Source: an uncultured Planctomycetia bacterium (GTDB taxonomy: Bacteria > Omnitrophota > Gorgyraeia > 2-01-FULL-45-10). From it: DNA of 64,000 nucleotides. The translations under genes and the position numbers were made by a program. The notes below the pieces were generated by a model. That model was not told the DNA's origin, did no database searches, and saw nothing but the letters and a program-made list of their open reading frames with translations. Shown piece after piece: positions 1-46,237 of this stretch (its first letter is position 1; the number at the start of each line of letters is the position of its first letter). The DNA lies in assembly GCA_964352425.1 (NCBI GenBank), contig CAYGRZ010000003.1, forward strand, positions 21,077-85,076, read 5' to 3'.

Positions 1-668
1 CCGATAATAGGCGAAGCGATGCCGGCGATCTCCTTGGGCATTACGGTAACTTCGGCCGCTTTCTCAAAGATCGCAGGGTTCACCCCCATAGGAATACAGG
101 TAGTTCGAGAATTATAGGCTTTACAATATTCCACTAAATTTCTTGCCATGACAAATACTGCGTCCGCCTTCTGTAATACCTGTTTTTCATACGCGATTAT
201 TTTTTTAGCGGATCTTGAGGTTGCTGCAAAGTTGTCAGTGCAGTAGTAAATAAAAGCCTTGTGCGGTATGTTCTCTTGAATATCAAGCGCTATGGGTGTG
301 GGTATAAATGTCCATATGATAGGATTCTGAAACTGCATCACCTTGCCCCAGCGCTGCAGGGAACGTAAAATAAGAAAGCGGTTTATTATGCGCGCCAGTC
401 GTGAGTATGGGAACGGCAGGATAAGCGGGGAATATACATAAAGATTAGGCATCTCCTGACGAAAACCTTTTGTGCTTTTATGCCAATTGACGATCCTTTT
501 CCATATTCTCGAGGTATCGGAGAACCTGGGAGAGCGCACACCGGTGTTCTCGATGAACAATACACGGTTGCCGTTTTTGGCAAAGGCCGTCATGATTTCC
601 TGGTGCTGCTGCCAGATAAAATCCCAGTCAATACTTGATATGCATATAATATCTTCGCCTGTCAGCAT
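1..668 (-). CDS. Glycosyltransferase family 4 (GT-B), N-terminal part; the gene runs off the window start
   Basis: Not in the ORF track. Translating the minus strand from the ATG at 666..668 gives MLTGEDIICISSIDWDFIWQQHQEIMTAFAKNGNRVLFIENTGV..., a typical GT4 N-terminal domain. The frame stays open to position 1. Confidence 0.55.
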   Translation of the reverse strand, partial: MLTGEDIICISSIDWDFIWQQHQEIMTAFAKNGNRVLFIENTGVRSPRFSDTSRIWKRIVNWHKSTKGFRQEMPNLYVYSPLILPFPYSRLARIINRFLILRSLQRWGKVMQFQNPIIWTFIPTPIALDIQENIPHKAFIYYCTDNFAATSRSAKKIIAYEKQVLQKADAVFVMARNLVEYCKAYNSRTTCIPMGVNPAIFEKAAEVTVMPKEIAGIASPII

Positions 669-853
669 CTACTATTTTAACCCCCATATTACATACAACC
701 GGTCCGGACGACAAATCTCCAGCCCGGAACCGACAATCAGCCGGATTTTATATATTTCTTGTTGGATGCTATTATATTATTATATTAGCGTATATGCAAG
801 AGTATAAAAAGGCGGGAATAACAGGCATTAAGCAGGGCTATCGGAGGCCCTAA

Positions 854-2335
854 TTATTTAATAGGCGTCTTCGTCTTATTAAAATATGTCATGCAAAACC
901 TTAAAAAATATAATGGATTATGCAATAGCTTAAAAATGATCTTATCCAGGAACTTTTTCGGGTTTCTGACCAAATACAGGAAATATAATTTTAACTTTTC
1001 CCTAAGAACCAGGCCCATAAGTGTTTTTCGGGGCAGGCCCTTGGTTTCGAAGCTCGGATAATCGGACTTTAACCTTGCATAGTCAAGCCCATCATCGATC
1101 AATTTTAGCGATTTACAGGTTTCCAAAAGCCTTGTTCCCGGCAACGGTGTGGCATAGAAAAAATTTGTGGTATCAAGCTGCAGATTTTCAGCGAATCTGA
1201 AGGTATTTTTTAACGACTTCCTGGTTTCTCCCGGAAGACCGACTACAAAAAATCCCGAGGTTTCTAGCCCCAACGTTTTCGATTTATCAATGATCGGTTT
1301 TATCTGAGAAAGTTCGATAGGTTTTTTTATAACGTTCTTTAGCATATATTCATCGCCGGACTCTATACCTATGCTTATTGCATAGCAGCCGCTCTTCTTC
1401 ATCAGATCAAGCATCTGGCCATCAAGAGTCTGCACAGCTACGCCATTCGGCACATTCCATAATATGTTAAACTCTTTTGCGATAATACCCGAAAAAATTC
1501 TCTTTGCCCTGTCTCCGTCTAAAGTCAAATTATCGTCTTCAAATAATATCTCCTTAACCCCGAATCGCTTCATAAGATACTCGATTTCCATTAAGACGTT
1601 TTCGGCTGATCTTTTTCTGTAATTTCTTCCCCAAACATTATGGATTGAACAAAAAATGCATTCAAACGGGCACCCGCGCGATGTTATAAGCGGCAGAAAA
1701 GGCACTTTTCTTGCAGGGCTCCCATGAGGGTTGTTGATCTTGAAATATTTTTCAAGAGGGAATATGTCCCAATATGGAAATTCTATGCCGTCAAGGTTTT
1801 CGATTGGGATCCTTTTCCTGGTTATTACGGCTGTTCCGTTTTTTCTGAAACCTATTCCATCAACCTTATCTAGATCTGATCTATTTTCTACAACATCTGC
1901 AAGCTCGACAAGCGTCCTCTCCCCCTCACCGATAACGACATAATCAGTATCATTATCAGCAAGGACCCTTTTTGGCTCAGCGGAAGGATGCGCGCCTCCC
2001 AAGACTGTTATAATGCCCCTGCTTATACTTTTAGCTGCACTGCAAACTTTATACACATTTTCAGTTTGCGCAGAAAAAAGACATGAAACCCCGACCATAT
2101 CCGGTTTCAGATCATAAATTTTACGTTTAATTTCTTCGAATGTTGACCCAAACCTGATAAAGTCTTCATCCACCGGCTCTTCCTGATAAAAGCCTTCAGC
2201 CAATGCATCCATCACATGAACATCATGCTTTTTTCTAAGCGCCGATGCTAGATATGCCAATCCTAAAGGCGGATGGCATTTTTTTGTTTCTGTTTTATAG
2301 ATAGTATATGGCGGCTGAATTAAAAGGATCTTCAA
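854..2335 (-). CDS. B12-binding domain / radical SAM (class B) enzyme
   Basis: 493 aa. N-terminal cobalamin-binding-like domain (MKILLIQPPY...VLGGAHPS) and a CxxxCxxC radical SAM motif (RGCPFECIFCS). Confidence 0.8.
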   Translation of the reverse strand: MKILLIQPPYTIYKTETKKCHPPLGLAYLASALRKKHDVHVMDALAEGFYQEEPVDEDFIRFGSTFEEIKRKIYDLKPDMVGVSCLFSAQTENVYKVCSAAKSISRGIITVLGGAHPSAEPKRVLADNDTDYVVIGEGERTLVELADVVENRSDLDKVDGIGFRKNGTAVITRKRIPIENLDGIEFPYWDIFPLEKYFKINNPHGSPARKVPFLPLITSRGCPFECIFCSIHNVWGRNYRKRSAENVLMEIEYLMKRFGVKEILFEDDNLTLDGDRAKRIFSGIIAKEFNILWNVPNGVAVQTLDGQMLDLMKKSGCYAISIGIESGDEYMLKNVIKKPIELSQIKPIIDKSKTLGLETSGFFVVGLPGETRKSLKNTFRFAENLQLDTTNFFYATPLPGTRLLETCKSLKLIDDGLDYARLKSDYPSFETKGLPRKTLMGLVLREKLKLYFLYLVRNPKKFLDKIIFKLLHNPLYFLRFCMTYFNKTKTPIK

Positions 2336-2337
2336 TT

Positions 2338-3129
2338 CTATTTCTTTCTAAGTTCTGCCACGACAGTAAATCCGCACCATGTAAATGGGAACGTTTTGCC
2401 CCAATACTTTGAAATCAGGTAAGAAAGGAAGCCTAATGCTTTTTGCACCACACCAGGCATCCTGACTATCAGGCTTCCCGGCAAATAATATGACCCTATC
2501 GACTGCATTATTTCAGCATCAAAATGTTTCAGATAATCAATGAACTCAAAAGATGAATAAATATACTGATGCGTTGGATCCCAAGCATTCCATTTATAAT
2601 CTCTAACAAATGCCTCGATAATTTTGCCTTCCAGGCCTGCAAATGATATTTTATTCGGAGTTGATATATAAAGCCTTGCCCCCTTCCTGGAAATTCTCAA
2701 TAATTCACCGATAGCTTGTGTATGTTTTTCTTTTGGAAGATGCTCTAAGACTTCAAAGGCTATTACTGTATCAAAATATGCATCTTTAAAAGGCAGCTTA
2801 TAAATATCGGAGCATAAGTAATGTATTTTCGCAGATAAGTCGTCATTTACCAATTTGGCGCCATTTAAGGAAAAGAGATCTTTATCGCAAAGAACTATTG
2901 TCGAGGATCTCTCCGCATAGGTCTTTTCCAATAAGCCTATATTGCTGCCGATATCGATAGTGGCACCAAGAGTCTTGTTCTTATTTAAAATATCACTGTA
3001 AAGTTTAAATCTATATTTGTCGAAAGGACTTTCATTGAACCTGGCCTTCATCTCTTCAACATAGCTTAGGAGATCCGCATTATTATGCGAATCGCGTATT
3101 CGCTCCTCATTTTGTTTTGAGCTATGCAT
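2338..3129 (-). CDS. Class I SAM-dependent methyltransferase
   Basis: 263 aa with the Rossmann motif I-like IDIGSNIGLL and acidic motif II VIAFEVLEHL. It sits 3 nt downstream of the radical SAM gene. Confidence 0.65.
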   Translation of the reverse strand: MHSSKQNEERIRDSHNNADLLSYVEEMKARFNESPFDKYRFKLYSDILNKNKTLGATIDIGSNIGLLEKTYAERSSTIVLCDKDLFSLNGAKLVNDDLSAKIHYLCSDIYKLPFKDAYFDTVIAFEVLEHLPKEKHTQAIGELLRISRKGARLYISTPNKISFAGLEGKIIEAFVRDYKWNAWDPTHQYIYSSFEFIDYLKHFDAEIMQSIGSYYLPGSLIVRMPGVVQKALGFLSYLISKYWGKTFPFTWCGFTVVAELRKK

Positions 3130-3130
3130 G

Positions 3131-4438
3131 TCAGTACGACTCTTTTTCTACTAAATTACTTATATTCGAAGCCACGCCCTCCTCTATGCTAATGGAGGTC
3201 GCCTTAGACCTTTTAAATGACACAAAAAGCCACGCGACCACCACCGCTTCGCAAAAAAGGGTAGATAAAACCGCACCGTTAATGCCTAACCTTGGTATCA
3301 TAAAGCAATTCAAAATTACATTGCCGACAATCCCTAGAAGGTATATTTTGCAAATCAAAAATTGTTTTCTCAGCGCAAATAGCAATCTTTCGAATACAGG
3401 CTTTATGAAAAAAGGGGCCAGGAGCAGGGAAAGTGTCGCTAAATACTTACTCGCATCGTCAAATTTTGCCCCATAAACAACCCTGATAATATCGCTCCCC
3501 TTAGCATATATGGCCGCTATGAACAAAAAGCTTATCAGGACTAAAGTTAACACGGATCTTTTTATTAAGACATCAATACTATTTATAGAATCGGATAGTT
3601 TAGAAAAGACCGGGAAAAAAACTGCAGATAAAGTTACGGGAATCAAGAAAAGCTGTTCCAGAAGCTTGAAGTCCGCGCTAAACCAACCGGCCGCCATATC
3701 CCCTTTTATCAAAGTTAACATCATTATATCGATTCTAAAATTCAGAAAACCTAAAATATATATCAAGATCAACGGCGAGGAAGCCCTGAGAAGACGTCTC
3801 CATAATCCATAATCTATCGAAAACGAAATAACTTTAACATTATGTAAAAAAGCAAACAGGCTTGTTAAGCAATTAATAAAGCTGGCAACGAGCAATCCGA
3901 CAGCAATGAATACGGGCCCATGGATATTAAGATTCGTTTTGGTTATAGAGAATATGATCCCCAATTTTATAATAGACTCCAAGATCATCAGCATTCCTTC
4001 GTAGTGCATTGTTTCGTTTACCCGAAAAATATACCTGAAAAAATACATAAATGAATCTGATATTACAGAAATGCCTAAAATAAGAATTATCCAGAATTTG
4101 CCTGAACTCAATGACGTCAATTTAGCCAAAACAATAATAACTAAAATATTGGCTATGGCTAACAATACTTTTAGCGTAACAATATTATTTATGTATTTAT
4201 GAAGGAATCCCCTATTATGAGAAACGTCTCGAAGAAAGATATCAGTCAGGCCAAAATCGGCTAAAAATAGAAATACCCAGACAAAAGAAAGACAATACGA
4301 AAGTTCGCCAAAGCCGTCTACACCTAAAAATCTCGCTATCAAAATCATTACGAAAAGATTGATTATTTTAAATATCGCCTGCGAAAATATCAGGCTGGAG
4401 AAATTCGTAAATATTTTATGTATTTGTTCTTTAGTCAT
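3131..4438 (-). CDS. Polysaccharide biosynthesis protein / Wzx-type oligosaccharide flippase (MOP superfamily)
   Basis: 435 aa, about 12 hydrophobic helices, N-terminus typical of the Wzx/PST family (FKIINLFVMILIARFLGVDGFG). Confidence 0.6.
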   Translation of the reverse strand: MTKEQIHKIFTNFSSLIFSQAIFKIINLFVMILIARFLGVDGFGELSYCLSFVWVFLFLADFGLTDIFLRDVSHNRGFLHKYINNIVTLKVLLAIANILVIIVLAKLTSLSSGKFWIILILGISVISDSFMYFFRYIFRVNETMHYEGMLMILESIIKLGIIFSITKTNLNIHGPVFIAVGLLVASFINCLTSLFAFLHNVKVISFSIDYGLWRRLLRASSPLILIYILGFLNFRIDIMMLTLIKGDMAAGWFSADFKLLEQLFLIPVTLSAVFFPVFSKLSDSINSIDVLIKRSVLTLVLISFLFIAAIYAKGSDIIRVVYGAKFDDASKYLATLSLLLAPFFIKPVFERLLFALRKQFLICKIYLLGIVGNVILNCFMIPRLGINGAVLSTLFCEAVVVAWLFVSFKRSKATSISIEEGVASNISNLVEKESY

Positions 4439-5544
4439 TTTGACCCGGTTATTTTATCTTTGTCTGCGCTACTTAAAAGTTGTTCGGTGATAGTATTATA
4501 AATTACATTGGCAAAAATTGCGTGGGCGGCCTTATTAGGGTGTTCGTTTTCAGGATAAATGATCAAGTCGCCCGTATCTAACCCTTTATATAAGTCCGAT
4601 GGGTAGGTATTTACAAAATAATAGCCGTATTTTTTACACTCGGATCGCACGGTGTCCTGAAAGTCCTTATGGAAGTTCCGGGCGTGAATCGAGAACATCT
4701 TGCGAACCAACACGATGACAACCCGCACGTTTTTATCTTTGATGCTGCCTCTTATTTCGTTGAAATAGCCGGATATTTTTTTATCGCTGAACCTGGAAAG
4801 ACCCGACCCGCTGCCTGATGCATAGCTCGTCTTGTAACGGACAAGATAGTTTTTAGCATTATCCCTTAGAACTGTTAATGAATTGAGGATAAAGGAATTG
4901 GCATAAATGTTGTTGTATATTCTTTGCAAAAGGCCGGGCTTCTCAGAGCTTTCGATGAGGCTATTCTTGTTGAATGCCTCATCAGAAATAGGGAAAAAAT
5001 TCGAAGTGAGCCCAATAAGAACGACGTCAGGAGCATAGTCATTACATGCTTTCCCAAGCCGCTTAATAAGGGACTTGTTAAAGCTATCACCCGCTACTGC
5101 AAAGTTAATAACTTCAATAGTATTTATTCCTAAGCGAGAATCATCCCTTAAAAATTCATTCAATCGTTTTTCAAGGACGCTGACATAGTTATCTTTCTGA
5201 TAAACACCCGTTCCCATCGTAAAAGATTCCCCGAAACAAGCGACTCGCCATACACCGGGCTTCTTTTTCTTCTCACAATCTTGCGACTGCCAGAGTCCGT
5301 CCGCGTTAGTTCTATAGGGCTTACCGTATAAATATCCTTCTTTATCAGGCAAGAGCGCAATAAGCCCATTATCGTTAATATACGAGATTTTTTTAAGCCC
5401 GGCCGCCGGAGAATATTTCACTAAATCCAGCCCCTTGAGCCCGAAAATGTGCAGCCGAAAATACGCCTCGCCAAATAGTAAAAGAGCGAGGTTTAACCCG
5501 AAAAAAAGGAGCACAAAGAAGATGGGTCTATTTTTATTTAGCAT
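4435..5544 (-). CDS. SGNH/GDSL-like hydrolase-fold protein, probable O-acetylation partner of the MBOAT (AlgJ/AlgX/DltD-like)
   Basis: 369 aa. N-terminal TM anchor and a GDS-like block VACFGESFTMGTG. It overlaps the stop of the downstream MBOAT gene by 4 nt. Confidence 0.4.
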   Translation of the reverse strand: MLNKNRPIFFVLLFFGLNLALLLFGEAYFRLHIFGLKGLDLVKYSPAAGLKKISYINDNGLIALLPDKEGYLYGKPYRTNADGLWQSQDCEKKKKPGVWRVACFGESFTMGTGVYQKDNYVSVLEKRLNEFLRDDSRLGINTIEVINFAVAGDSFNKSLIKRLGKACNDYAPDVVLIGLTSNFFPISDEAFNKNSLIESSEKPGLLQRIYNNIYANSFILNSLTVLRDNAKNYLVRYKTSYASGSGSGLSRFSDKKISGYFNEIRGSIKDKNVRVVIVLVRKMFSIHARNFHKDFQDTVRSECKKYGYYFVNTYPSDLYKGLDTGDLIIYPENEHPNKAAHAIFANVIYNTITEQLLSSADKDKITGSK

Positions 5545-5546
5545 GT

Positions 5547-6995
5547 TTAGAATTTGAAATATATAAATTTTTGATCTACAGGAAGACTGTAAATTCCGCC
5601 GAAGATCAGTGAATAGGCAATAAAATATACGATAACCGTGCCGACAAGCACTTTTCCCCTCACGCTAAGCATCTGCAGCACCTCTAAGTCATTACGCCTA
5701 TATTGGAGATACTCCACAGCAAATATGACCAGAGAAAGGAAAACAAACAGGGAGAATTGTCTGCCTGATATGAAATTTGACAAAGAGATATTGCCGATTA
5801 AAGCCGTCAGCATGCTCCCGATCTGACTGAAAGAATTTGCCTTGAAGAGAAGCCAGCCCGCGCAGACAAGGTGGAAAAAGAATATGATGCGCAGCCACTT
5901 CCATATCTTCCCGGCAAAAATATTTTTTGGGGACGGTACGCGCGCAAGGACCGGCTCGATTATTTTATGTATGCATAGTAAAAGACCATGGTAGGCACCC
6001 CAGATGATAAATGTCCACGCAGCGCCGTGCCAGAGCCCGCCCAGAAGCATCGTAACGAAAAGGTTGCGATATGTCATCGCCCCCCCTTTTCTGTTCCCGC
6101 CCAGAGGAATATACAGGTAATCTCTGAGCCAGGTTGACAGGCTGATATGCCATCTATGCCAAAAATCGCGCGGGTTGGTAACAAAGTAGGGCAGGTTGAA
6201 ATTGACCATTATATCGAATCCCATGCACCTGCCCAATCCCATGGCGATCTGAGAATATCCGTTAAAATCACAATATATCTGTACTGTGAACGCATATATG
6301 GCCAGAAGGATCTTGGCCCCGTCGTAAGGAGGCGCCGCAGAAAAAACGGGATCGACTATTCCCGCCAAATTGTCGGCAATGAATACCTTTAGGAACAATC
6401 CCCAAAGGATCAGAAATGCTCCTCCATATACCTTGGCTAATGTTATTCTCCGGGGTGATTGTACTTGAGGCAGCAGATGTGCGCCTCTTTCGATGGGTCC
6501 TGCTATAAGCAACGGAAAAAAGGAGACGAGCAGAGCATAATCTACCAGACTTTTTACCGGAACGAGCTTCTTCCTGTAAACGTCGATTGTATAGCTCATC
6601 GTTTTAAAAGTATAAAACGATATCCCGACGGGAAGAATGATGTGCAATAAGTTAATATTGACTCTGAGTCCCAGGCTCTGCAGAAACATTTGAAAATTAG
6701 AAGCAAAAAAATTGAAATATTTAAAAAATCCCAGAATGGAAAGGTTGATGAATATGCTGATCAATAAAAAACGTTTTCTTCGCACCGCATCATCGGATGC
6801 GCATATCTTCTGGCTGCAAATAAAATCGGTTATGATGGAGGTGAACATCAAAAACAAGAACCTGTAATCCCAGCTGCCATAAAAAACACAGCTTGCCGCA
6901 AGGAGCAGCCTGTTCTGCCATTTGTGGCCCAACACAAGATACAGGCCGTAAACGATTACGAAGAATATCCCGAATTGCAAGCTGTTGAATAACAT
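5547..6995 (-). CDS. MBOAT family membrane-bound O-acyltransferase (AlgI/DltB-like)
   Basis: 482 aa, multi-TM, with the hallmark MBOAT motif FWHRWHISLSTWLRDYLYIPLGGNRKG and its catalytic His. Confidence 0.8.
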   Translation of the reverse strand: MLFNSLQFGIFFVIVYGLYLVLGHKWQNRLLLAASCVFYGSWDYRFLFLMFTSIITDFICSQKICASDDAVRRKRFLLISIFINLSILGFFKYFNFFASNFQMFLQSLGLRVNINLLHIILPVGISFYTFKTMSYTIDVYRKKLVPVKSLVDYALLVSFFPLLIAGPIERGAHLLPQVQSPRRITLAKVYGGAFLILWGLFLKVFIADNLAGIVDPVFSAAPPYDGAKILLAIYAFTVQIYCDFNGYSQIAMGLGRCMGFDIMVNFNLPYFVTNPRDFWHRWHISLSTWLRDYLYIPLGGNRKGGAMTYRNLFVTMLLGGLWHGAAWTFIIWGAYHGLLLCIHKIIEPVLARVPSPKNIFAGKIWKWLRIIFFFHLVCAGWLLFKANSFSQIGSMLTALIGNISLSNFISGRQFSLFVFLSLVIFAVEYLQYRRNDLEVLQMLSVRGKVLVGTVIVYFIAYSLIFGGIYSLPVDQKFIYFKF

Positions 6996-7018
6996 AGATA
7001 CCGGTTCCTGTTAATAGG

Positions 7019-7897
7019 CTATGCTTTAATCCTATTCGAATCATGGATTCTTTTAAGCTGGTCGTTTAATAACCCCAAACAAAAGATGGGCATAAAGCTT
7101 GCGACACATATCGCGGAGATGAGCCAAAGCCAGGCATGTTTGAAAAATATGCCATTGAGCACAAAAAGCAATATGCCGAATACGGCGTTGGCTGTCGCTA
7201 ATAATAAGAACAGTTTTATCGGATTATAGAATAATATCATCTCCACGATCATTTGAGCAGCTCTTAGAGTATCCCTAAAATGCCTTATCTTCGACTTCCC
7301 CACACGCTTCAGATATGTTATGGGGACGTATTTAATATAATGGTTGTTCAGAAAGAAAATCAGCGTTAGGGATGTGGTGAACGAAAAGCCCGTGCATAAT
7401 GAGCTGCCCAGGGGCATAACTATGCTTTTTTTAAATATTCTGAAGCCTGAATTCACATCCGCTATTTTCCTGCCGCACGCGTACTCCGCAAGGCGATTGA
7501 ACATAAAACGAGCCGGGTTTTTGAAAATGCCCTTCTTGTACTCTTTTCCGGTCCTGGCGCCGACGATCATGTCATACTGGGGATAATATTCCTTCAGACG
7601 CTTAATCTCGTTCGCCGGATAAGAGCCATCCCCATCCATGATGAGGATGCATTCGTGCTTTGATGCTGCTATCCCATCGTAAAGCGATCGTCCATACCCT
7701 AAATTTTCCACATGATTTATTATCCGGACATTCTTCATATCAGCCCGCTTAAGAACATCGATCGTATTATCCGTGGAACCGTCATTCACCACTATAATTT
7801 CATATTCTTTATAAACACTAAGCTCTTTCGCGATACTGCCCAAGACGGAGGGAAGTCCCTCCGCTTCGTTATATGCTGGAATTATGACACTTATCAT
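7019..7897 (-). CDS. Glycosyltransferase family 2 (Dpm1/GtrB-like polyprenyl-phosphate sugar transferase)
   Basis: 292 aa. MISVIIPAYNEAEGL...VVNDGSTDNT, a DxD-type GT-A N-terminal domain, plus two C-terminal TM helices. Confidence 0.75.
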   Translation of the reverse strand: MISVIIPAYNEAEGLPSVLGSIAKELSVYKEYEIIVVNDGSTDNTIDVLKRADMKNVRIINHVENLGYGRSLYDGIAASKHECILIMDGDGSYPANEIKRLKEYYPQYDMIVGARTGKEYKKGIFKNPARFMFNRLAEYACGRKIADVNSGFRIFKKSIVMPLGSSLCTGFSFTTSLTLIFFLNNHYIKYVPITYLKRVGKSKIRHFRDTLRAAQMIVEMILFYNPIKLFLLLATANAVFGILLFVLNGIFFKHAWLWLISAICVASFMPIFCLGLLNDQLKRIHDSNRIKA

Positions 7898-7918
7898 GAG
7901 ATGACCTCCCGGGTTATT

Positions 7919-9322
7919 TTACCAACTTGTCTGTAAAAAAGCCTTTGCATGTGCCAGTATCGTCCCATTCATCAGAGTCCTAAAAAAGGTTTTCGTTATA
8001 TAGCTGAAACGGAAGTAAAATGTTTTGTATGACGCGTTATAGTATTTATCTATTGTCTCCCACGAAAGATTGTCGTGGTCGTAGAGCTCTTTAGGCGAAG
8101 CAGCGAAATTATATTTATCCCAATCCCTTGTCTTGATCTGCCCTTTCTTCAGCATTGAATCGAACATCTCGGTCCCTGGCAGCGGTATCGTTATCGCGAA
8201 TTTTACGTAATCCGGGTCGAGCTTGATAGCAAAATCGATGGTCTTTTTCAGATCCTCCTCCGTCTCCGAGGGAAGGCCCAGCATAAAATAACATTCTATC
8301 TCAAGACCTGCCTCTCTAGCCGACTTAACGGCGCTCTCTGCCTGCTCAAGAGAAATATTTTTATGGATCGAATCTATTATTCGCTGGCTTCCTGACTCGA
8401 TACCAAAAGGAATCCTGTAGCAACCGGCCCTCTTCATCATCTTAAGAAGCTCGAGATTGATCCTATCCACACGTATCCCGCCTCTCGGATACCACGGGAA
8501 TTTGAGACCTCGGCGCATTATCTCTTCGCAAATAGAATGAGCCCTTTTCATATCTGCGGTAAAGACATCGTCTATTATATGTATTTCCCTGAACCCCAAT
8601 CTGAGCATCCGTTCCATCTCATCAACTACGCGGCCGACAGATTTCATCCTCAACTTATAGCCGTGTATATTTTTATTGCAAAATACACACCTGCCGTAAC
8701 ATCCCCTGGATGTTTCAATATATCCAAGAGGAGCCCTTCTGCTGGAGATCCGCGGCTGATAGTACTTCTTTATATCAAAAAGCTCATAAGCAGGAAAAGG
8801 AAGCTCGTCTAGATTCTCTATAAAATCATTTTGAATTTGAGAGGTAACGACCTCTCCTTTATCCCTGTAGGTAACATTAGGGACTCTCCGGGAAAGGCCT
8901 TCCCGCGCGATCAAATTCAATATAAAATCTCCCTCCCCCTTAACAACACCGTCTATCCTGCTTTCATTGAGGACATCTTCGGAAAGTGAGGACGGATGCG
9001 GCCCGCCGACAACGATGGTTATGCCTTCATCCATATCTTTTATTGCCTCGGCAAGATGATACGCCTTCTTAATGACCGGCGTGGTAGAGGTAATCCCAAC
9101 CAACCCGGGGCTAAACTCCGCAACCGCTTTTCGAAGCTCTTTATCGGGATCATCGCTAAGATTAAGATCCAATAATTTAACTTTATGGCCATCCCTTAAA
9201 AGCGGTGCGGCTATGCATGCCAATCCTAAAGAAGTCGTACCTCGTGAAATCGCCGATCTCACCTTAGACTTGCCGAAGATATCTTCGTAATAGTTTGGAT
9301 TGATGAGCAGGATTTCGGCCAT
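7919..9322 (-). CDS. B12-binding domain / radical SAM (class B) enzyme
   Basis: The track ORF extends to 9496. I placed the start at the ATG at 9320..9322 (MAEILLINPNYYE), which avoids overlap with the upstream gene. B12-binding-like N-terminus (ITIVVGGPHPS) and CxxxCxxC (SRGCYGRCVFCNK). Confidence 0.75.
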   Translation of the reverse strand: MAEILLINPNYYEDIFGKSKVRSAISRGTTSLGLACIAAPLLRDGHKVKLLDLNLSDDPDKELRKAVAEFSPGLVGITSTTPVIKKAYHLAEAIKDMDEGITIVVGGPHPSSLSEDVLNESRIDGVVKGEGDFILNLIAREGLSRRVPNVTYRDKGEVVTSQIQNDFIENLDELPFPAYELFDIKKYYQPRISSRRAPLGYIETSRGCYGRCVFCNKNIHGYKLRMKSVGRVVDEMERMLRLGFREIHIIDDVFTADMKRAHSICEEIMRRGLKFPWYPRGGIRVDRINLELLKMMKRAGCYRIPFGIESGSQRIIDSIHKNISLEQAESAVKSAREAGLEIECYFMLGLPSETEEDLKKTIDFAIKLDPDYVKFAITIPLPGTEMFDSMLKKGQIKTRDWDKYNFAASPKELYDHDNLSWETIDKYYNASYKTFYFRFSYITKTFFRTLMNGTILAHAKAFLQTSW

Positions 9323-9327
9323 TTTTG

Positions 9328-10698: not shown

Positions 10699-10834
10699 AA
10701 TTCCCCCGCTAAGGATGCCGCATCCCTTGAGCGTTTCATTGCAAAACGCGGATATGCCCCGTCTTCGTCATTTAAGATGTTCTAAAGATTATACTTCCCA
10801 GCAACCGTTTTGTCGATAGAATATGCCTATACAA

Positions 10835-31864: not shown

Positions 31865-31871
31865 AGTACTC

Positions 31872-35665: not shown

Positions 35666-35675
35666 TAAACGGATC

Positions 35676-36689: not shown

Positions 36690-36908
36690 GATAGTTATAA
36701 TATAATATTATATAATGCCGGAAAAGTCAACCAAATGAGAGGGCCTTGTCAAGCCAAAATAGAGGGCCTGTTGCGCCGAATAAGTGTTATATGGCATCCG
36801 GTATGGTGTAAAGTATAAGCGCGAGGTTAGATGTCAGGTTATTTGCGAAGTAGACTGAGCTCGGAGAGCGCGATGGCCGGATAGATGAATGTGACTTTCA
36901 CGTCTTTC

Positions 36909-37850
36909 TTATCCGCTGATGGATCTGAAATAGGCTACGGTCCGCTCGAGCCCGGTCGCGAGATCCACCTTCGGCGCCCAGCGCAGAAGCTTCTTCGCCT
37001 TTGTGATGTCCGGACACCGGACCTTGGGATCGTCGACAGGCAGGCCCTCGAACACGATTTTGCTCTTGCTACGGGAAATCTTGATGATCGCATGAGCCAG
37101 CTCAAGCAGCGTCATCTCGTTCGGGTTGCCGATATTCACGGGATAATGCGCGCTTGAGAGGAACAGCTTGTAGATACCGCTGACGAGGTCCGATACGTAA
37201 CAGAAGCTGCGCGTCTGCCGGCCGCTGCCGTAGACAGTAATGGGTCTATTCTTGAGCGCTTGGCCGATAAAGTTCGGTATCGCCCTGCCATCCTCTTCCC
37301 GCATCCTTTCGCCGTATGTATTGAATATGCGCACGATCCTGGTGTCGACGCCGTGGTACCGGTGGTACGCCATCGTCATCGCCTCGGCGAAACGCTTCGC
37401 CTCGTCGTAGACGCCGCGGGGGCCGATGGGATTGACGTTCCCCCAGTATTCCTCGTACTGCGGATTGACCAGCGGATCGCCGTAGACTTCGCTCGTCGAT
37501 GCCAGGAGGAATCGCGCTCTCTTCTCTTTCGCCACGCCCAGGGCGTTATGCGTGCCGAGCGAGCCGACCTTGAGGGTCTGGATGGGAAGCTTGAGATAAT
37601 CGATCGGGCTTGCAGGCGAGGCAAAATGCAGGACATAGTCGACCCGCCCCTTCACGTCGATATACGTCGTGACATTATGCTTGGCGAACTCGAAATCGCG
37701 GTTCTTCAGGTTGTGCCGGATATTCTCCATCTTTCCCGTCAGGAGATTGTCCATACAGATGACGCGATGGCCCTTCGCGAGGAAGAGGTCGCACAGATGG
37801 CTTCCTATGAATCCCGCGCCGCCCGTTATCAATACTGTTTTTTTCGCCAC
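36909..37850 (-). CDS. UDP-glucuronate decarboxylase (UDP-xylose synthase, UXS/ArnA-decarboxylase-like SDR)
   Basis: 313 aa with a GTG start. [18 protein letters not shown]...YDEAKRFAE is a near-canonical UXS signature. Confidence 0.75.
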
Positions 37851-37943
37851 CCCACACCTTCTTATCTTTTAACAATACAAACTATTTTCTTTGCAGCATA
37901 CGCACCCAAACCATTCCCTGTGAAAACAAAAGAAGGTGTGGGG
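37850..37943 (-). repeat. Perfect 14-bp inverted repeat (ccccacaccttctt / aagaaggtgtgggg) bracketing the whole intergenic spacer
   Basis: Arms at 37850..37863 and 37930..37943. One arm abuts the epimerase stop codon and the other contains the SD (AAGAAGG) and the first base of the GTG start of the UXS gene. Confidence 0.7.
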
Positions 37944-38876
37944 TTATTTGTTCCTGAACCACTCGACCGTGCGCGCGAGCCCTTCCTCAAATCCTATTAT
38001 TTTTTTCATCCGCAGCATGCGCTTCATCCTGCTGATATCGGCATACGTCTTGCGCACGTCACCCCGCCTTTTCGGCGCATATTTCGGCTTGATATCCGTC
38101 CCGAGTATTTTGTTAAGCTCATTGACGATGTCAATGACCGATACGGTCGTGCCGCAGGCGACATTGAATACCTCGCCCGATATCCCGGGCACGACACATG
38201 AATTCAGGTTCGCCGCAACGACATTTCCCACGAACGTGAAGTCCCTGGACTGCTTGCCGTCCCATTCGACGATCGGAGACTTGCCCTTCATTATCTCGAA
38301 GAGGAATGCCGGTATGACCGCGGAGTACTTCGACTCCGGATTCTGCCGGGGGCCGAAGACGTTGAAGTAGCGCAGCGAGACCGTCTCGAGACCGAATGTC
38401 CTGGCGAATGTAATGCAGTAATTCTCGGCGGCCAGTTTCGAAACACCGTACGGTGAGATCGGCTTCGGCAGGTCGGTCTCTTTCTGGGGAAAGCTCCTGG
38501 CGTCACCATAGGCAGAACTTGACGAGGCATACACGACCCGTTTTACACCCGCCGCCTTGGCTTCGAATAGGACATTTAACGTACCGTTCACATTAATATC
38601 ATTGGTCGTGAATGGATCATCGACAGATTTCGGGACTGAGCGGAGCGCCGCCTGGTGGATGACGTAGTCGACGCCTCTCAGGGCCTTCCTAAGCGTACTC
38701 CTGTTCCTTATATCCCCCTTAATGAACGTGATCTTTCCCGAAAAAGGCTTCAGGTTCTCCATCTTTCCGGTGATAAGGCTGTCGATAACCCTGACTCTCT
38801 TCTTCCGCCTTACGAGCTCCTCGACGATATTCGAACCTATGAATCCGGCTCCGCCGGTAACGAGATAGTGTGCCAT
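37944..38876 (-). CDS. NAD-dependent sugar epimerase (UDP-GlcNAc/UDP-glucose 4-epimerase-like, WbpP/CapD-like)
   Basis: 310 aa. [21 protein letters not shown] and YGVSKLAAE (YxxxK). Confidence 0.75.
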   Translation of the reverse strand: MAHYLVTGGAGFIGSNIVEELVRRKKRVRVIDSLITGKMENLKPFSGKITFIKGDIRNRSTLRKALRGVDYVIHQAALRSVPKSVDDPFTTNDINVNGTLNVLFEAKAAGVKRVVYASSSSAYGDARSFPQKETDLPKPISPYGVSKLAAENYCITFARTFGLETVSLRYFNVFGPRQNPESKYSAVIPAFLFEIMKGKSPIVEWDGKQSRDFTFVGNVVAANLNSCVVPGISGEVFNVACGTTVSVIDIVNELNKILGTDIKPKYAPKRRGDVRKTYADISRMKRMLRMKKIIGFEEGLARTVEWFRNK

Positions 38877-38878
38877 AG

Positions 38879-41647
38879 TTATAGTTTTATGATGCTCTTC
38901 CTTTCCTTCTGGTTCTTCAGGACGTTCCGCGTATCGACGATCAGTTTCGAATGCTCGACGATAAAATCGTAGTCGACGTCCGTGTGATCGGTCACGATGA
39001 CGACGCAGTCCGCGCCCCTGAACGTTTCTTTATCGAATTTGGCAAGGTCAAGATTGATCTCGCCTATCTTAAGATACGGGAAGAGCGCGTCGTAGTACGA
39101 GACATCGGCGCCCTTATGCATGAGGAACTCTATGATCTCAAGCGCGGGAGACTCGCGCAGGTCCTTCACGTCCTTCTTGTACGCCACGCCGACGACGAGG
39201 ACCTTCGATCCGTTCAGCGCCTTCTTATGGTTGTTCAGGCCTTCGGTCACTTTGGAGACGACATAGTGCGGCATCTCGGAGTTGACCTGGGCGGCGAGGT
39301 CGATGAACCGCGCCTCGAACCCGTACATCCTCGCCTTCCACGAAAGATAGATGGGATCGACGGGTATACAGTTATGCGTCAATACACCGTACGACGTCAC
39401 GAAGGTATTTGTGTCACGCACTTCCATCGAATAAACATTATCCGCGTTCGAACGGGATATGCTCTTTATTTTAACGGCGGCAAAATCTTTATATAGTTTG
39501 AATGACTTGTTTGAAACCACTCGTTTTTTATTCTTAAAGTAAGTCCCTATCTTTTTTGATTTCTCTCCGAGGAATACAGTTTTGAGCATTTTCAACTGCT
39601 CACTGCCGAATATATTGAGCAGATTCTTCCTTTTCTTAAGGGTCGGAACAAACCCGAGGTCCTGCAATAGCAGCAGCACTTGATTAAAGAGAATGTCGCT
39701 TGAGGTGAAATAATTTACCACTGCGGCATTGTTATTGTGGCAATACTTTTTGCCCCTCTTAAAATAAGTCCTTTGCAGGTTTGAGTAATCTACGCCTCCG
39801 TCGCCGCGCAAGATGCCCATGAGGAGATTCAGCTTCAATTCTTTCGGAAAAAGCAGAAACCTGTCCGGTATTTTCATCGCGTAGGAATTGATACCGCATT
39901 TTAAGATATCCCTTAAAAGATATCCAAAAATAGAAGATGATATCTTAATACATGCGCTTTTCCATATCTTTGATTTATATACCGAGTAAGTTATGCCTCT
40001 TTCTTTTAAGAATAAAATGACATCCGTGATATATTCCGTCTCGTTCGAATTAAACGTCAGCCTGGTTCTTATCGAACCATCCAGAGTTATACATCCTTCA
40101 CTTAAATAGTAGCCGATGAATCTGCTGAAATCTTCGTCTATCTCAATAACGGCCGGAACGCTCTGGAATGATGGGCCTCTACCTGTAACTAATAAGAGAT
40201 CTTCCCTATCAACTGCCCAGGACGTCTTCTTCTCTAGCGACAGGTAAACGCTTAATGGTAGAGAGTTGTCCCTTATGTAATCGCGCACCTTATCTTTTTC
40301 AGAAGGCTCAGTATTTTTGTATATAACATCTCTATAGGACGACCATTCAAAGTCTTTGCCTTTCAAGCGGACGCCTTTCACGAGATCGTTATCTCTTAAA
40401 AAATCTATCATATCTATCCGCAAGTCGCTCGATTTTGTCAACGATTTTGGCATGGTAAGAATTACGGGTATCTCATCGTTAATTTCAAGCTCTTCGGCGA
40501 ATTTAACCCCCATAGCGCCGTCTTTCGCGACCATCACCGGATGCTTTGGAGTAACGCAAAATTCACGCCTGTCCGCCAGCATGATATTCAACATATCGCC
40601 TTTATAAGGCCTTTCGGAAAGTATGCCTATCTCCTTAAAACAAGGCTCTGCCTTTACCACATCGTAAGAAAATATTTCTTTCGCATTAGGCCTTATAAAT
40701 GTTGTGCCTCTGAGATCGTGCATTCGGGATTGGGGGTCATCCTTAGACTCCTTAACAAAATCCGATATTTTAATAACTCGTAACTCGCTACCATCCTTCT
40801 CTTTCACGAATATTTGCTCGTCTTTACCAAGGCAGTGCCCACCTACCCCGGGCCCCGGATAGAACGGCATGAAGCCGTAGGGCTTCGTCTTGGCCGCGTC
40901 GATCACTTCCCACACGTCGATCTTGAGCCTGTCGCACATGAGCATGAGCTCGTTCACCATGCCGATATTGACGATCCTGAACGTGTTCTCGAGGAGCTTC
41001 ACCATCTCGGCGACTTTTGCCGACGAGACGGGGACTATCTTCTCAAGCGCCTGCTCGTAGAGGAGCTTCGCCAGGTCCGTAGAGTTCTTCGAAATGCCGC
41101 CGATGATCTTCGGCGTGTTCTTCGTATCATACTTCGGATTACCGGGATCGATGCGCTCGGGTGAGAAGGCAAGATAAAAATCCTTCCCTTCCTTCCAGAG
41201 GTCCTCTTCAAGGATCGGGAGCATAACCTCCTCGGTCGTTCCGGGATACGTCGTGGATTCAAGAACGATTATCTGGCCACGCTTCATGTGCCTCTTTATG
41301 TTCCTGACCGCAGAGACGATGAACGAGACATCCGGCTCTTTCGTCTTATAGAGCGGTGTCGGCACGCAGATGATCACCGCGTCGAGGTCTTTTATTACGC
41401 TGAAATCGGTCGTGACCGCGAGCGACTTGTTCTTCCTGACCAGGATGAGATCCGACTGCTGCACGTCGAGGATGTATGACTCGCCCTTCTGGATCTTTGC
41501 CACCCGGTCCTTGTCGATGTCTATTCCGTGTACCTTAAACCCGCACTTCGCGAATGTCACGGCAAGCGGTAGCCCCACATAGCCGAGGCCGATGATGCCG
41601 ATCTTCGCCTTCTTGCTTGAAATCTTCTTCTTCAGTTCATTTAACAT
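38879..41647 (-). CDS. UDP-N-acetyl-D-hexosamine (ManNAc/GlcNAc) 6-dehydrogenase, WecC/WbpA/Cap5O family, with an intein inserted at the catalytic Cys
   Basis: 922 aa. The N-extein (1-271) has the NAD-binding KIGIIGLGYVGLPLAV motif and ends ...GPGVGGH. The C-extein (760-922) starts CIPVDPIYLSW. Joined, these give the family signature GVGGHCIPVDP. Combined extein length is 434 aa. Confidence 0.8.
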   Translation of the reverse strand: MLNELKKKISSKKAKIGIIGLGYVGLPLAVTFAKCGFKVHGIDIDKDRVAKIQKGESYILDVQQSDLILVRKNKSLAVTTDFSVIKDLDAVIICVPTPLYKTKEPDVSFIVSAVRNIKRHMKRGQIIVLESTTYPGTTEEVMLPILEEDLWKEGKDFYLAFSPERIDPGNPKYDTKNTPKIIGGISKNSTDLAKLLYEQALEKIVPVSSAKVAEMVKLLENTFRIVNIGMVNELMLMCDRLKIDVWEVIDAAKTKPYGFMPFYPGPGVGGHCLGKDEQIFVKEKDGSELRVIKISDFVKESKDDPQSRMHDLRGTTFIRPNAKEIFSYDVVKAEPCFKEIGILSERPYKGDMLNIMLADRREFCVTPKHPVMVAKDGAMGVKFAEELEINDEIPVILTMPKSLTKSSDLRIDMIDFLRDNDLVKGVRLKGKDFEWSSYRDVIYKNTEPSEKDKVRDYIRDNSLPLSVYLSLEKKTSWAVDREDLLLVTGRGPSFQSVPAVIEIDEDFSRFIGYYLSEGCITLDGSIRTRLTFNSNETEYITDVILFLKERGITYSVYKSKIWKSACIKISSSIFGYLLRDILKCGINSYAMKIPDRFLLFPKELKLNLLMGILRGDGGVDYSNLQRTYFKRGKKYCHNNNAAVVNYFTSSDILFNQVLLLLQDLGFVPTLKKRKNLLNIFGSEQLKMLKTVFLGEKSKKIGTYFKNKKRVVSNKSFKLYKDFAAVKIKSISRSNADNVYSMEVRDTNTFVTSYGVLTHNCIPVDPIYLSWKARMYGFEARFIDLAAQVNSEMPHYVVSKVTEGLNNHKKALNGSKVLVVGVAYKKDVKDLRESPALEIIEFLMHKGADVSYYDALFPYLKIGEINLDLAKFDKETFRGADCVVIVTDHTDVDYDFIVEHSKLIVDTRNVLKNQKERKSIIKL
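39371..40834 (-). mobile_element. Intein (488 aa) with LAGLIDADG homing-endonuclease domain
   Basis: It begins with Cys (CLGKDEQIFVKEKDGSELRVI, block A) and has block B TPKHPV. It carries two LAGLIDADG-like motifs (FIGYYLSEGC and LLMGILRGDGG). It ends ...YGVLTHN (blocks F/G) and is followed by the +1 Cys of the extein. Confidence 0.7.
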
Positions 41648-41677
41648 ATAATCCCTCTTAAGATTGCTTCGTCAGCA

Positions 41678-41760
41678 TAGAAGCCAACTACGGCTTCCTC
41701 GCAATGACGGTTATTTTAAATAGAAGCCGGTAACAGCTTCCCCGCAATGACGGTTATTTC
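41678..41760 (-). repeat. Tandem duplication of a 40-nt element (hairpin plus conserved 20-mer) overlapping the rmlD stop
   Basis: Copy 1 (41678..41717) is tagaagccaactacggcttcctcgcaatgacggttatttt. Copy 2 (41721..41760) is tagaagccggtaacagcttccccgcaatgacggttatttc. Each has a gaagc/gcttc stem with a variable loop. Confidence 0.6.
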
Positions 41761-42701
41761 GACAAATATTCCTTGAGCGCCGCCTTCCAGCCGCGCATCC
41801 GGTATCCGGTAAATTTCCTGAACTTCGCGTTATCCATGACCGACATCGCCGGCCGCTTCGCGGGCCTCTTCAACTCCGACGACGTGATCGGCGCGACCTT
41901 CGCCTTCGACTTCACTATCTTCAGGATCTGCCTGGCATACTCGAACCACGATACTTTCCCGGAGTTTGATACATGATAAATCCCATAGCCCTTAGCCCTA
42001 AGCTCTTGGCCCTCAGCCCTTAGCCCTTCGCCCTTCGCCCTCAGCCCTTCGCCCTTAGCTATCTTATTGAGCAACGCATGGATCGCCTTCGCCAGATCCT
42101 TCGTATACGTCGGCGAACCGACCTGGTCGTCGACGACCTTCAGCGCCTTCCCGGCCTTCGCCCTGGCCGTGATCGTATCTACAAAATTCTTGCCGCGCTT
42201 GCCGTAGAGCCAGCTTGTGCGCAGGATATAATATTTTTCGAGCGTCTCCTGGACGGCCCTCTCGCCCTTCAGCTTCGAATCGCCATATATGCCCAGCGGC
42301 GCGACCGCGTCGGTCTCTCGATATGGCTTCTTCTTCCTGCCATCGAATACAAAATCGGTGCTGATGTAAATGAGCGCTGCATGGGCATTCTTACATGCAA
42401 GAGCAACGCTCCTCGTCCCCTCGCTATTTACCGCATAAGCCTTGTCAGGATCGAGCTCGCACCCGTCGACATCGGTCCACGCGGCCGCATGCACGACAAG
42501 ATCCGGCCTCGCCTCTTCGATCATATCCGCAACTGCCTTGCCGTCAGTGATATTGCCTTTATAAAACTTGTGTACACTTGACAGCGGGCTGCGGATCACA
42601 TCCAGCCCTGCGAGATCATAGTCAGCGGCGAGTTCACGAGAAAGATCTATCCCGAGCATCCCGCTCGAGCCCGTTATCAATACTTTATATCTTGTCGGCA
42701 T
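41754..42701 (-). CDS. rmlD: dTDP-4-dehydrorhamnose reductase (RmlD) with an internal 3x7-aa repeat insertion
   Basis: YKVLITGSSGMLG, ...HAAAWTDVDGCE and YGDSKLKGE match RmlD. I placed the start at ATG 42699..42701 (MPTRYKVL). The track ORF starts at GTG 42743. The sequence KGEGLRAKGEGLRAEGQELRA is inserted near the C-terminus. Confidence 0.75.
   Translation of the reverse strand: MPTRYKVLITGSSGMLGIDLSRELAADYDLAGLDVIRSPLSSVHKFYKGNITDGKAVADMIEEARPDLVVHAAAWTDVDGCELDPDKAYAVNSEGTRSVALACKNAHAALIYISTDFVFDGRKKKPYRETDAVAPLGIYGDSKLKGERAVQETLEKYYILRTSWLYGKRGKNFVDTITARAKAGKALKVVDDQVGSPTYTKDLAKAIHALLNKIAKGEGLRAKGEGLRAEGQELRAKGYGIYHVSNSGKVSWFEYARQILKIVKSKAKVAPITSSELKRPAKRPAMSVMDNAKFRKFTGYRMRGWKAALKEYLSK
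41986..42060 (-). repeat. In-frame tandem 21-nt repeat (gcccttRgccctYagcYctt-like units) inside rmlD
   Basis: The DNA tagcccttagccctaagctcttggccctcagcccttagcccttcgcccttcgccctcagcccttcgcccttagc encodes KGEGLRA three times on the minus strand. Confidence 0.6.
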
Positions 42702-43657
42702 ACAAGCAACCGGTCCCACCACGCCTTGTTGGACTGATACCACTCAACAGTGAGTTCGAGCGCCGTCCTAAATTCATGCCGCGGCTTCCAGCCCAGAGCG
42801 GAAAGCTTCGATATGTCGAGGGCGTAACGCTTGTCGTGGCCGGGCCTGTCTTTGACATATTCGATGGAGCTTTCGTCCTTGCCGAGGATCTTCAGGAGCG
42901 TATGCGTGAGCTCCATATTCGTGATCTCGCTTCCCGCCCCGATATTGTATATCTCGCCTGCCTTGCCTTTATGCATCACTACGTCGATGGCCTCGCAGTT
43001 ATCGGCCACAAAGAGCCAGTCGCGCACGTTCATTCCGTCGGCATAGAGCGGCACCTTCTTGCCGACCATCAGGTTCGTTATAAAGAGAGGTATAACCTTT
43101 TCCGGGTACTGGTAGGGCCCGAAATTGTTTGAACTGCGGGTTATGATGACCGGTAATTTGAAGGTGACAAAATAGGATCTGGCCAGAAGATCCGCGCCCG
43201 CCTTAGTGGCAGAATATGGGCTGTTGGGTTCAAGCGGATCGCCCTCTTTTGAATAGCCCCGAGCGATGCTGCCGTAGCACTCATCCGTTGAGATTTGTAT
43301 GACCAGCTCGATGCCGGACTTCTTAGCCGCCTCTAAAAGCGTGTAGGTCCCAAAGACGTTCGTCCTGACGAATTCGGACGCGTCCTGTATGGACCTGTCC
43401 ACATGCGATTCGGCCGCGAAGTTGATGATTGAGTCGCAGCCCTTGACAAGCTTCTCGACCGTCTGCTTGTCGGTGATGTCGCCTTTGACGAACCGGTACT
43501 GCCTGTTCTTCTCGACGTCACGCAGGTTCTCCAGATTGCCGCAATAGGTGAGCTTGTCGAGGTTCGTGACGTGATAGTCGGGATATTTTCCGAGGATGTG
43601 CCGGATGAAATTTGACCCTATGAAACCGGCGCCGCCGGTGACGAGAAGTGTCTTCAT
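42677..43657 (-). CDS. rmlB: dTDP-glucose 4,6-dehydratase (RmlB)
   Basis: 326 aa. [22 protein letters not shown], ...ISTDECYG and YSATKAGADLLARSY are all canonical for RmlB. Confidence 0.85.
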   Translation of the reverse strand: MKTLLVTGGAGFIGSNFIRHILGKYPDYHVTNLDKLTYCGNLENLRDVEKNRQYRFVKGDITDKQTVEKLVKGCDSIINFAAESHVDRSIQDASEFVRTNVFGTYTLLEAAKKSGIELVIQISTDECYGSIARGYSKEGDPLEPNSPYSATKAGADLLARSYFVTFKLPVIITRSSNNFGPYQYPEKVIPLFITNLMVGKKVPLYADGMNVRDWLFVADNCEAIDVVMHKGKAGEIYNIGAGSEITNMELTHTLLKILGKDESSIEYVKDRPGHDKRYALDISKLSALGWKPRHEFRTALELTVEWYQSNKAWWDRLLVCRQDIKY

Positions 43658-43658
43658 T

Positions 43659-44399
43659 TTACAGTACGCATTTCTGCGCGGGCCGTTTCGCGACGAGGTT
43701 ATTCGCCTTTAAGAGCGATTCGAACGTCCCGGCGTCGGTCCACCAGCCGTCGAGGACGCTGTATTCGAGCTCACCCCGCTTCAGGTACGCGGAATTAACA
43801 TCCGTTATCTCGAGCTCTCCGCGGTGCGAGGGTTTGAGCGTCTTTATGATATCGAAGACCTTGTTATCGTACATATAGATGCCGGTCACGGCGTATTTCG
43901 ATTTCGGCCGCTTCGGCTTCTCTTCGATCGAAGAAAGCTCCTTGCCCTTGAAGCCCACGACGCCGAACCGTTCCGGGTCCGGGACTTTCTTTATAAGGAT
44001 CCTCGCGCCCTTCTTCTGCGCCCTGAAGGCGTCGACGTGTTTTGCGATTGTTTTTTCGATGATGTTGTCGCCGAGCATGACGACGATCCTGTCATTGTCC
44101 GCGAAATGGCGCGCCAGCCCGAGGGCCTGCGCGATGCCGCCCTCGCCTTCCTGGTAGGTGTAATTGATATGCATCAGGCCGAATTCTTTACCGTCGCCCA
44201 GCAGGCGCAGGAACTCGCCGGCATGCATACCGCCGGTCACGATAAGGATGTCCTTTATCCCGGCGTCGACCAGCGTCTGGATCGGGTAATAGATCATCGG
44301 CTTATTAAAAACTGGCAATAGATGTTTGTTGCTTATTTTTGTAAGCGGAGCCAACCTCGTCCCCAGGCCGCCGGCAAGAATGACGCCTTTCAGTCCCAT
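43659..44399 (-). CDS. rmlA: Glucose-1-phosphate thymidylyltransferase-like sugar nucleotidyltransferase (RmlA, short form)
   Basis: 246 aa. MGLKGVILAGGLGTRLAPLTKISNKHLLPVFNKPMIYYPI is a canonical RmlA N-terminus. Confidence 0.7.
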   Translation of the reverse strand: MGLKGVILAGGLGTRLAPLTKISNKHLLPVFNKPMIYYPIQTLVDAGIKDILIVTGGMHAGEFLRLLGDGKEFGLMHINYTYQEGEGGIAQALGLARHFADNDRIVVMLGDNIIEKTIAKHVDAFRAQKKGARILIKKVPDPERFGVVGFKGKELSSIEEKPKRPKSKYAVTGIYMYDNKVFDIIKTLKPSHRGELEITDVNSAYLKRGELEYSVLDGWWTDAGTFESLLKANNLVAKRPAQKCVL

Positions 44400-44402
44400 G
44401 TG

Positions 44403-44497
44403 CTATTTCCTCCAGTCATAAAATAGGGGACAGCGCCCTATTTTCCAGTCCTATTTAGAGAAAATAGGGCGCTGTCCCCTATTTTCCCCAGTCATAG
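44403..44497. repeat. Perfect 25-bp palindrome with 16-nt spacer, flanked by 9-bp direct repeats (MITE/REP-like or operator array)
   Basis: Arms at 44420..44444 (aaaataggggacagcgccctatttt) and 44461..44485 (exact reverse complement). Direct repeat ccagtcata at 44412..44420 and 44489..44497. The motif ctattttcc(cc)agtc recurs three times. Confidence 0.7.
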
Positions 44498-44925
44498 GGT
44501 ATATCGTTATCATACGCGTCGACCCTGTATTCGTCAGGAACTTTAGCATTATACGGGACCGTCACCGTATTGATAACGACCGCCTCGGTGGAGCTGGCAC
44601 ACTTGAAACCGTGGTAGACCAGCTTCGGTATGTGGATGAGCATCGGGTCATCCGGGCTTACGACGAATTCGTTCACCTCGCCGAACGTCGGCGAGCCCGG
44701 TCTGGCGTCGTAGAGGGCGAGCTTCATCCGCCCCGATATGCAGGTAAAATTATCGTCCTGCTTCTTGTGGAAATGCCAGGCCTTGACCACGCCGGGCAGC
44801 GCCGTCGTCATATAGACCTGGCCGAACTTCTCGAACATCTCGTCGTCGCAGCGCAGGATCTCCATCAGGCGCCCGCGGTCGTCCGGAACAACTTTAAGCT
44901 TTTTGACCTTCACACCTTCTATCAT
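44479..44925 (-). CDS. rmlC: Cupin-fold dTDP-sugar epimerase/isomerase (RmlC / FdtA-like)
   Basis: 148 aa small cupin with an HFH motif (VKAWHFHKKQDDNF). It is in operon context with rmlA, rmlB and rmlD. Shorter than typical RmlC. Confidence 0.5.
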   Translation of the reverse strand: MIEGVKVKKLKVVPDDRGRLMEILRCDDEMFEKFGQVYMTTALPGVVKAWHFHKKQDDNFTCISGRMKLALYDARPGSPTFGEVNEFVVSPDDPMLIHIPKLVYHGFKCASSTEAVVINTVTVPYNAKVPDEYRVDAYDNDIPYDWGK

Positions 44926-44941
44926 AACTCCCAGCTCCTGA

Positions 44942-46237
44942 TTACCTGCGCCCCATCCCCTCGTAGGTAAATCCGAGCGCCTTAACTTCGTCAGGGTCGT
45001 AAATATTCCTGCCGTCGACTATCACCGGCTGCCGCATCAGCTTCTTGACTTTCTTAAGATCCAGCTCCTTGAACTCGCTCCACTCGGTGGCGATGACGAG
45101 GCAATCGCAGCCCCGGGCCGTATCATACACATCCTTGCAGAATTTCACACCGCTCTTCAGTATAACCTTTGCCTTGTTCATCGCGACGGGATCATACACC
45201 TTCACCCTGACGCCCTGCTCCCGGAGCACTTCGATCACATCGAGGGCGGGCGCATAACGAAGATCGTCGGTGTTCGGCTTGAACGCCAGCCCGAGCACGC
45301 CAACGGTCTTGCCGGACAGGTTCCATATCGCATTCTCGACCTTCTTTATCAGCGCGAGCTTCTGGCCGTCGTTTATCTTCTGCACTTCCTTCAGGAGGGC
45401 GAAGTCGTAGCCTGCCTTCTCGGCTATCCTGATGAACGCCGCAAGATCCTTCGGGAAGCAGAACCCGCCGAAACCGAGGCCGGCGTTCAGGAACTTGTCG
45501 CCGATCCTCTTGTCGAGCCCGATGCCCTTCGCGACCTCGACGACGTCGGCACTCAGCTTATCGCAGACGTTCGCGATCGCATTGATGAATGATACCTTCA
45601 TGGCGAGGAACGAATTGGCGGCGTGCTTGATGAGCTCGGCAGATTTTATATCGGTCACCACGATCTCGGCCTTGAGCGGCCTGTATATCTCGGAGAGGAT
45701 CTCGGCGGCCTTCCTGGACTTAACGCCCAGGACGATCCTGTCCGGGTTCATAAAATCCTCTATGGCGGAACCTTCTCTTAAGAATTCCGGGTTGGACGCG
45801 ACGTCGAACTTCACGCCGCGCTTACTGAACGTCTTGATCGTATGCTCGACCCATTCGCCGGTATTGACGGGTACGGTCGATTTTTCCACGACCACCTTGT
45901 ATGACTGCATGGATCCGGCGATCTCTTTGCAGACGCCCTCGACGAAGCTCAAGTCAGCCTCGCCGTTGTCCTTCGGAGGCGTCCCGACCGCTATGAATAT
46001 GACGTCGGACTTTACAACACCGTCCTTCACGTGCAGAGCGAAAGAGAGCCTGCCCTTCTTGACGTTCCGTTTCACGAGCTCAGCAAGGCCCGGCTCGTAA
46101 ATGGGCATGACGCCGCCTTTAAGCTTCCTGATCTTTGACAGATCGTTATCGACACAGATGACCTTGTTGCCGAGCTCGGCAAAACAGGCCCCGGTCACCA
46201 GCCCTACGTATCCCGCACCGACCATGCATATATTCAT
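44942..46237 (-). CDS. ugd: UDP-glucose 6-dehydrogenase
   Basis: 431 aa. MNICMVGAGYVGLVTGACFAELGNKVICVDND and the catalytic-Cys motif GLGFGGFCFPKD. Confidence 0.85.
   Translation of the reverse strand: MNICMVGAGYVGLVTGACFAELGNKVICVDNDLSKIRKLKGGVMPIYEPGLAELVKRNVKKGRLSFALHVKDGVVKSDVIFIAVGTPPKDNGEADLSFVEGVCKEIAGSMQSYKVVVEKSTVPVNTGEWVEHTIKTFSKRGVKFDVASNPEFLREGSAIEDFMNPDRIVLGVKSRKAAEILSEIYRPLKAEIVVTDIKSAELIKHAANSFLAMKVSFINAIANVCDKLSADVVEVAKGIGLDKRIGDKFLNAGLGFGGFCFPKDLAAFIRIAEKAGYDFALLKEVQKINDGQKLALIKKVENAIWNLSGKTVGVLGLAFKPNTDDLRYAPALDVIEVLREQGVRVKVYDPVAMNKAKVILKSGVKFCKDVYDTARGCDCLVIATEWSEFKELDLKKVKKLMRQPVIVDGRNIYDPDEVKALGFTYEGMGRR

Follow-up and report, generated by a model that had tools for sequence, protein, structure and literature searches.

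A very large LPS/O-antigen-type glycan locus in an uncultivated Omnitrophota genome

In positions 1-46237 of the window, the whole 64-kb stretch of Candidatus Omnitrophota DNA analysed here, 42 complete genes and one truncated gene follow each other without a break on the minus strand, which raises the question whether they form a genuine glycan locus, and of what kind. The locus is real; it is a very large LPS/O-antigen-type glycan locus of an uncultivated member of the Omnitrophota, and systems of this kind are already known, this one appearing unusually long and rich in tailoring enzymes. The original prediction of a very large locus with Wzx/Wzy machinery, many tailoring enzymes and precursor genes for rhamnose, GlcA, xylose, HexNAcA and diamino-sugars is borne out gene by gene. 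Its count of about 43 consecutive co-directional genes holds, but sharing one strand does not set the locus apart, as all accepted genes of the window, including dnaK, dnaJ and hflX, lie on the minus strand.

As a check for chimerism, the window was compared with short-read contigs from a separate assembly (runs ERR3804373/4), which match it at 99.5-100% over 1-16574, 16583-30242, 30015-38667, 41096-46828 and 44839-47503. These contigs thus span most GC transitions. They leave two gaps, one of 8 nt that falls within a single intact ORF (16575-16582) and one at the intein region (38668-41095). The left window edge cuts one gene:
1-668, minus: GT4 (TuaH-like) and DUF218/SanA-like fusion, N-terminal part only (222 of 618 aa)

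By itself this fragment has no Pfam match; the full gene lies on L045 at 11545-13401 (Glyco_trans_1_4 and DUF218; top NCBIfam match TuaH, 3e-27). Looking beyond this edge, as had been suggested, was successful: one short-read contig, which overlaps the window at 100% identity, extends further and carries the initiating transferase that seemed to be missing, a WecA-type PF00953 protein about 3.7 kb out. Next come another Wzy_C protein, ligase-like, and a heptosyltransferase-like GT9; further GT2s are also present. Because this contig continues with more glycan genes, the locus measures at least about 56 kb, and the best reading of it is O-antigen plus core LPS.

At the other end, the locus begins directly after an LptD-like gene:
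46352-48547, minus: LptD-like outer-membrane protein (NCBIfam CT351 family 2e-14, LptD 3e-10; sole PDB match LptD 7OMM, 8.6e-6)
44942-46237, minus: Ugd, UDP-glucose 6-dehydrogenase (three Pfam domains; TuaD model 591 bits; above the cutoff of the NCBIfam NDP-sugar dehydrogenase subfamily model)
44479-44925, minus: 148-aa cupin, divergent RmlC-like epimerase or isomerase (dTDP_sugar_isom 1.5e-16; PDB 3EJK 1.6e-21, RmlC structures about 1e-8, QdtA 2e-3)
43659-44399, minus: RmlA-like glucose-1-phosphate thymidylyltransferase, short form (NTP_transferase 1e-61; TIGR01207 258 bits, below the 361 cutoff)
42677-43657, minus: RmlB, dTDP-glucose 4,6-dehydratase (TIGR01181 458 bits, cutoff 365)
41754-42659, minus: RmlD, dTDP-4-dehydrorhamnose reductase (TIGR01214 320 bits, cutoff 224)
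38879-41647, minus: UDP-N-acetylhexosamine 6-dehydrogenase (WecC/Cap5O/WbpA class), intein-interrupted, 922 aa (Pfam UDPG_MGDP_dh N, central and C domains, Intein_splicing, LAGLIDADG_3)
39371-40834, minus: 488-aa LAGLIDADG intein at the catalytic Cys (GGH/C...HN/C, slashes marking junctions set against the intein-free L005 ortholog)
37944-38876, minus: TviC/WbpP-like UDP-HexNAc(A) 4-epimerase (top NCBIfam TviC, 232 bits, below cutoff)
36909-37850, minus: UDP-glucuronate decarboxylase (UDP-xylose synthase, UXS; human UXS1 3.4e-102, full length)

The LptD-like gene holds its position beside the locus across the Omnitrophota, where I found 36 loci of this type with it, and the first 9 kb or so (ugd, rmlC'ABD, HexNAc dehydrogenase, TviC-like epimerase, UXS) are syntenic across the phylum. 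Conservation is 69-80% for the cupin in nearly all relatives that possess one, 51-79% for the TviC/WbpP-like epimerase in relatives, and 57-80% for UXS across the Omnitrophota. Beyond this part the locus is variable and of lower GC3.

Judged from its domains and junctions, the dehydrogenase carries a self-splicing intein, with a GC of 0.41 vs 0.54 in the exteins; the spliced sequence matches 4R16 (8e-71) and Cap5O (3e-67) best. The intein is absent from orthologs in relatives, and homologous inteins sit at the same site of the dehydrogenase in other phyla. The first reading had seen neither the intein nor the taxon, nor the context of lptD and LPS core.

Export, polymerisation and glycosyl transfer are represented by:
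3131-4438, minus: Wzx-type flippase, 12 TM-like segments (Polysacc_synt 5e-23)
30458-31864, minus: second Wzx-type flippase, 14 TM-like segments on a 499-aa ORF (Polysacc_synt 5e-32)
9328-10698, minus: Wzy_C-domain membrane protein, about 10 TM (5.5e-8, 33.2 bits vs a cutoff of 31.7)
7019-7897, minus: GT2 with C-terminal TM helices, GtrB/ArnC/AglJ-like (Glycos_transf_2 4e-29)
18912-19706, minus: soluble GT2, weakly similar to ArnC (Glycos_transf_2 2e-18; ArnC model 3.8e-12)
12489-13769, minus: GT-C-like membrane protein, 9 TM (PMT_2 3e-4, weak, below cutoff)
15913-17391, minus: GT-C (PMT_2, ArnT-like fold family) membrane glycosyltransferase, 8 TM (PMT_2 1e-6, above cutoff)
13766-14980, minus: divergent GT4 (weak Glyco_trans_1_4 and Glyco_transf_4; stp3 family 2.8e-9)
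29315-30457, minus: GT4 (Glycos_transf_1 3e-38)

The Wzy_C protein is a candidate O-unit polymerase. The first GT2, with TM segments at residues 216-278 and NCBIfam matches to AglJ, ArnC, PgfS and a Dol-P-hexose transferase, is likely a polyprenyl-phosphate sugar synthase. Two flippases together with two GT-C proteins had been taken to suggest a second glycan or a branch, and both pairs are indeed present. However, the GT-C proteins, which by themselves point only weakly to a second polymer, make most sense as transferases that add branches or modifications in the periplasm, each with one GT2 of the locus to match (paired by count). The gene order GT2-CE4-methyltransferase-GT-C around 15913-17391 is also kept in the related locus L046.

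A second question is whether the amino-sugar genes amount to the complete WbpA/B/E/D/I set that had been proposed:
22255-23247, minus: SDR on UDP-uronic acid, 4-epimerase or ArnA/UXS-type decarboxylase (PDB 6ZL6 8e-36, UXS1 2e-32, ArnA 1e-28; top NCBIfam UDP-4-keto-pentose/UDP-xylose synthase, below cutoff)
23244-24338, minus: non-hydrolysing UDP-HexNAc 2-epimerase, WecB family (TIGR00236 276 bits, cutoff 210)
24338-25273, minus: 4,6-dehydratase-like SDR, LegB/RmlB-like (Epimerase 1e-33; LegB 3e-34, below cutoff)
27460-28464, minus: DegT aminotransferase, LegC/PseC/DesI-like, 4-aminotransferase type (DegT 1e-76; LegC 5e-53 and PseC 2e-49, both below cutoffs)
31872-33002, minus: DegT sugar 3-aminotransferase, WbpE/QdtB/DesV clade (PDB 7B0D 2e-110, QdtB 5e-101, WbpE 5e-89)
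32999-33580, minus: LbH N-acetyltransferase, WlbB/WbpD-like (PDB 3MQG 1.7e-62, full length)
35676-36689, minus: GFO/Idh/MocA sugar 3-dehydrogenase candidate (Pfam; top NCBIfam archaeal UDP-GlcNAc 3-dehydrogenase, 180 bits, below the 450 cutoff)

Counted by enzyme class only, the set is there, with strong matches for WbpD (3MQG) and WbpE. The GFO enzyme, however, is rejected as WbpB, as neither WbpB nor WlbA is among its PDB matches at 1e-10, and the WecB gene belongs to another conserved sub-cassette, at a distance of 10 kb.

The tailoring enzymes are:
854-2212, minus: B12-binding radical SAM enzyme no. 1, 452 aa (top NCBIfam Sden_1168 P-methyltransferase family, 296 bits, below the 575 cutoff)
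7919-9355, minus: B12-binding radical SAM enzyme no. 2, 478 aa (HpnJ and BchE, both below cutoffs)
25332-26723, minus: B12-binding radical SAM enzyme no. 3, large uncharacterised family (top PDB match AprD4 1e-22)
2338-3129, minus: class I SAM methyltransferase (Methyltransf_11/25/23; NCBIfam matches generic only)
14997-15893, minus: class I SAM methyltransferase (Methyltransf_23 7e-24)
17388-18032, minus: class I SAM methyltransferase (Methyltransf_11 2e-22)
21435-22271, minus: class I SAM methyltransferase (Methyltransf_23/11/25)
26739-27503, minus: class I SAM methyltransferase (Methyltransf_23/25; start codon set by the Logan gene call)
28479-29318, minus: class I SAM methyltransferase (Methyltransf_11 5e-19)
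4435-5544, minus: SGNH/GDSL hydrolase-fold partner of the MBOAT protein (Lipase_GDSL_2, Lipase_GDSL; one N-terminal TM anchor)
5547-6995, minus: MBOAT membrane O-acyltransferase, DltB/AlgI-like (MBOAT 6e-25; DltB model 157 bits, below cutoff)
18029-18922, minus: CE4 polysaccharide deacetylase (Polysacc_deac_1 5e-13)
34640-35650, minus: deacetylase-fold (CE4-like) protein, unnamed family (AF2 model, pLDDT 95.5)
19716-21419, minus: NodU/CmcH-type carbamoyltransferase (Carbam_trans_N 1e-67, Carbam_trans_C 1e-73)
33624-34649, minus: 341-aa protein with N-terminal GNAT domain (Acetyltransf_1 7e-11)

Nearly every gene class named beforehand was thus recovered by Pfam, NCBIfam and PDB searches. Pfam agrees with the predicted two Wzx, one Wzy_C, two GT2, two PMT_2/GT-C (one weak) and two DegT proteins; with rmlA, rmlB and rmlD plus the short RmlC-like cupin, ugd and a second NDP-sugar dehydrogenase; with the single LbH, GNAT, GFO/Idh/MocA, WecB and NodU-type proteins and the MBOAT and SGNH pair; and with six class I methyltransferases and three B12-binding radical SAM proteins, all three with CxxxCxxC. 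The counts of GT4s and of SDRs outside the Rml and UXS enzymes were each one too high, with three instead of four found (13766-14980, 29315-30457 and the partial 1-668; 22255-23247, 24338-25273 and 37944-38876).

Of the two expected CE4 proteins, one is identified by Pfam, and the other (34640-35650), which has no Pfam match, by its predicted structure, which matches a deacetylase fold (Foldseek top matches the polysaccharide deacetylases 3RXZ, HP0310 and ArnD); its more than 1300 homologs share invariant D11, E13, H76, H78, H132, R133 and H279. Other Omnitrophota carry homologs of the carbamoyltransferase (37-44% identity) in this same region. The GNAT-domain protein has no NCBIfam family and is absent from L046.

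Three further ORFs lie within the locus:
10835-11584, minus: 249-aa exported or anchored protein, function unknown (N-terminal hydrophobic segment; no Pfam or NCBIfam match)
11598-11906, minus: 102-aa ORF, coding status doubtful (no matches; the gene calls of the Logan contig include it)
11893-12417, minus: DUF4330 protein with N-terminal anchor (PF14221 1.6e-15)

By their sequences, the three B12-binding radical SAM enzymes belong to uncharacterised families. No. 3, the one checked, has at least 2847 homologs and is associated with glycan loci in two phyla: in both Omnitrophota and Chloroflexi its surroundings are a glycan locus, and DegT and SDR genes lie close to it.

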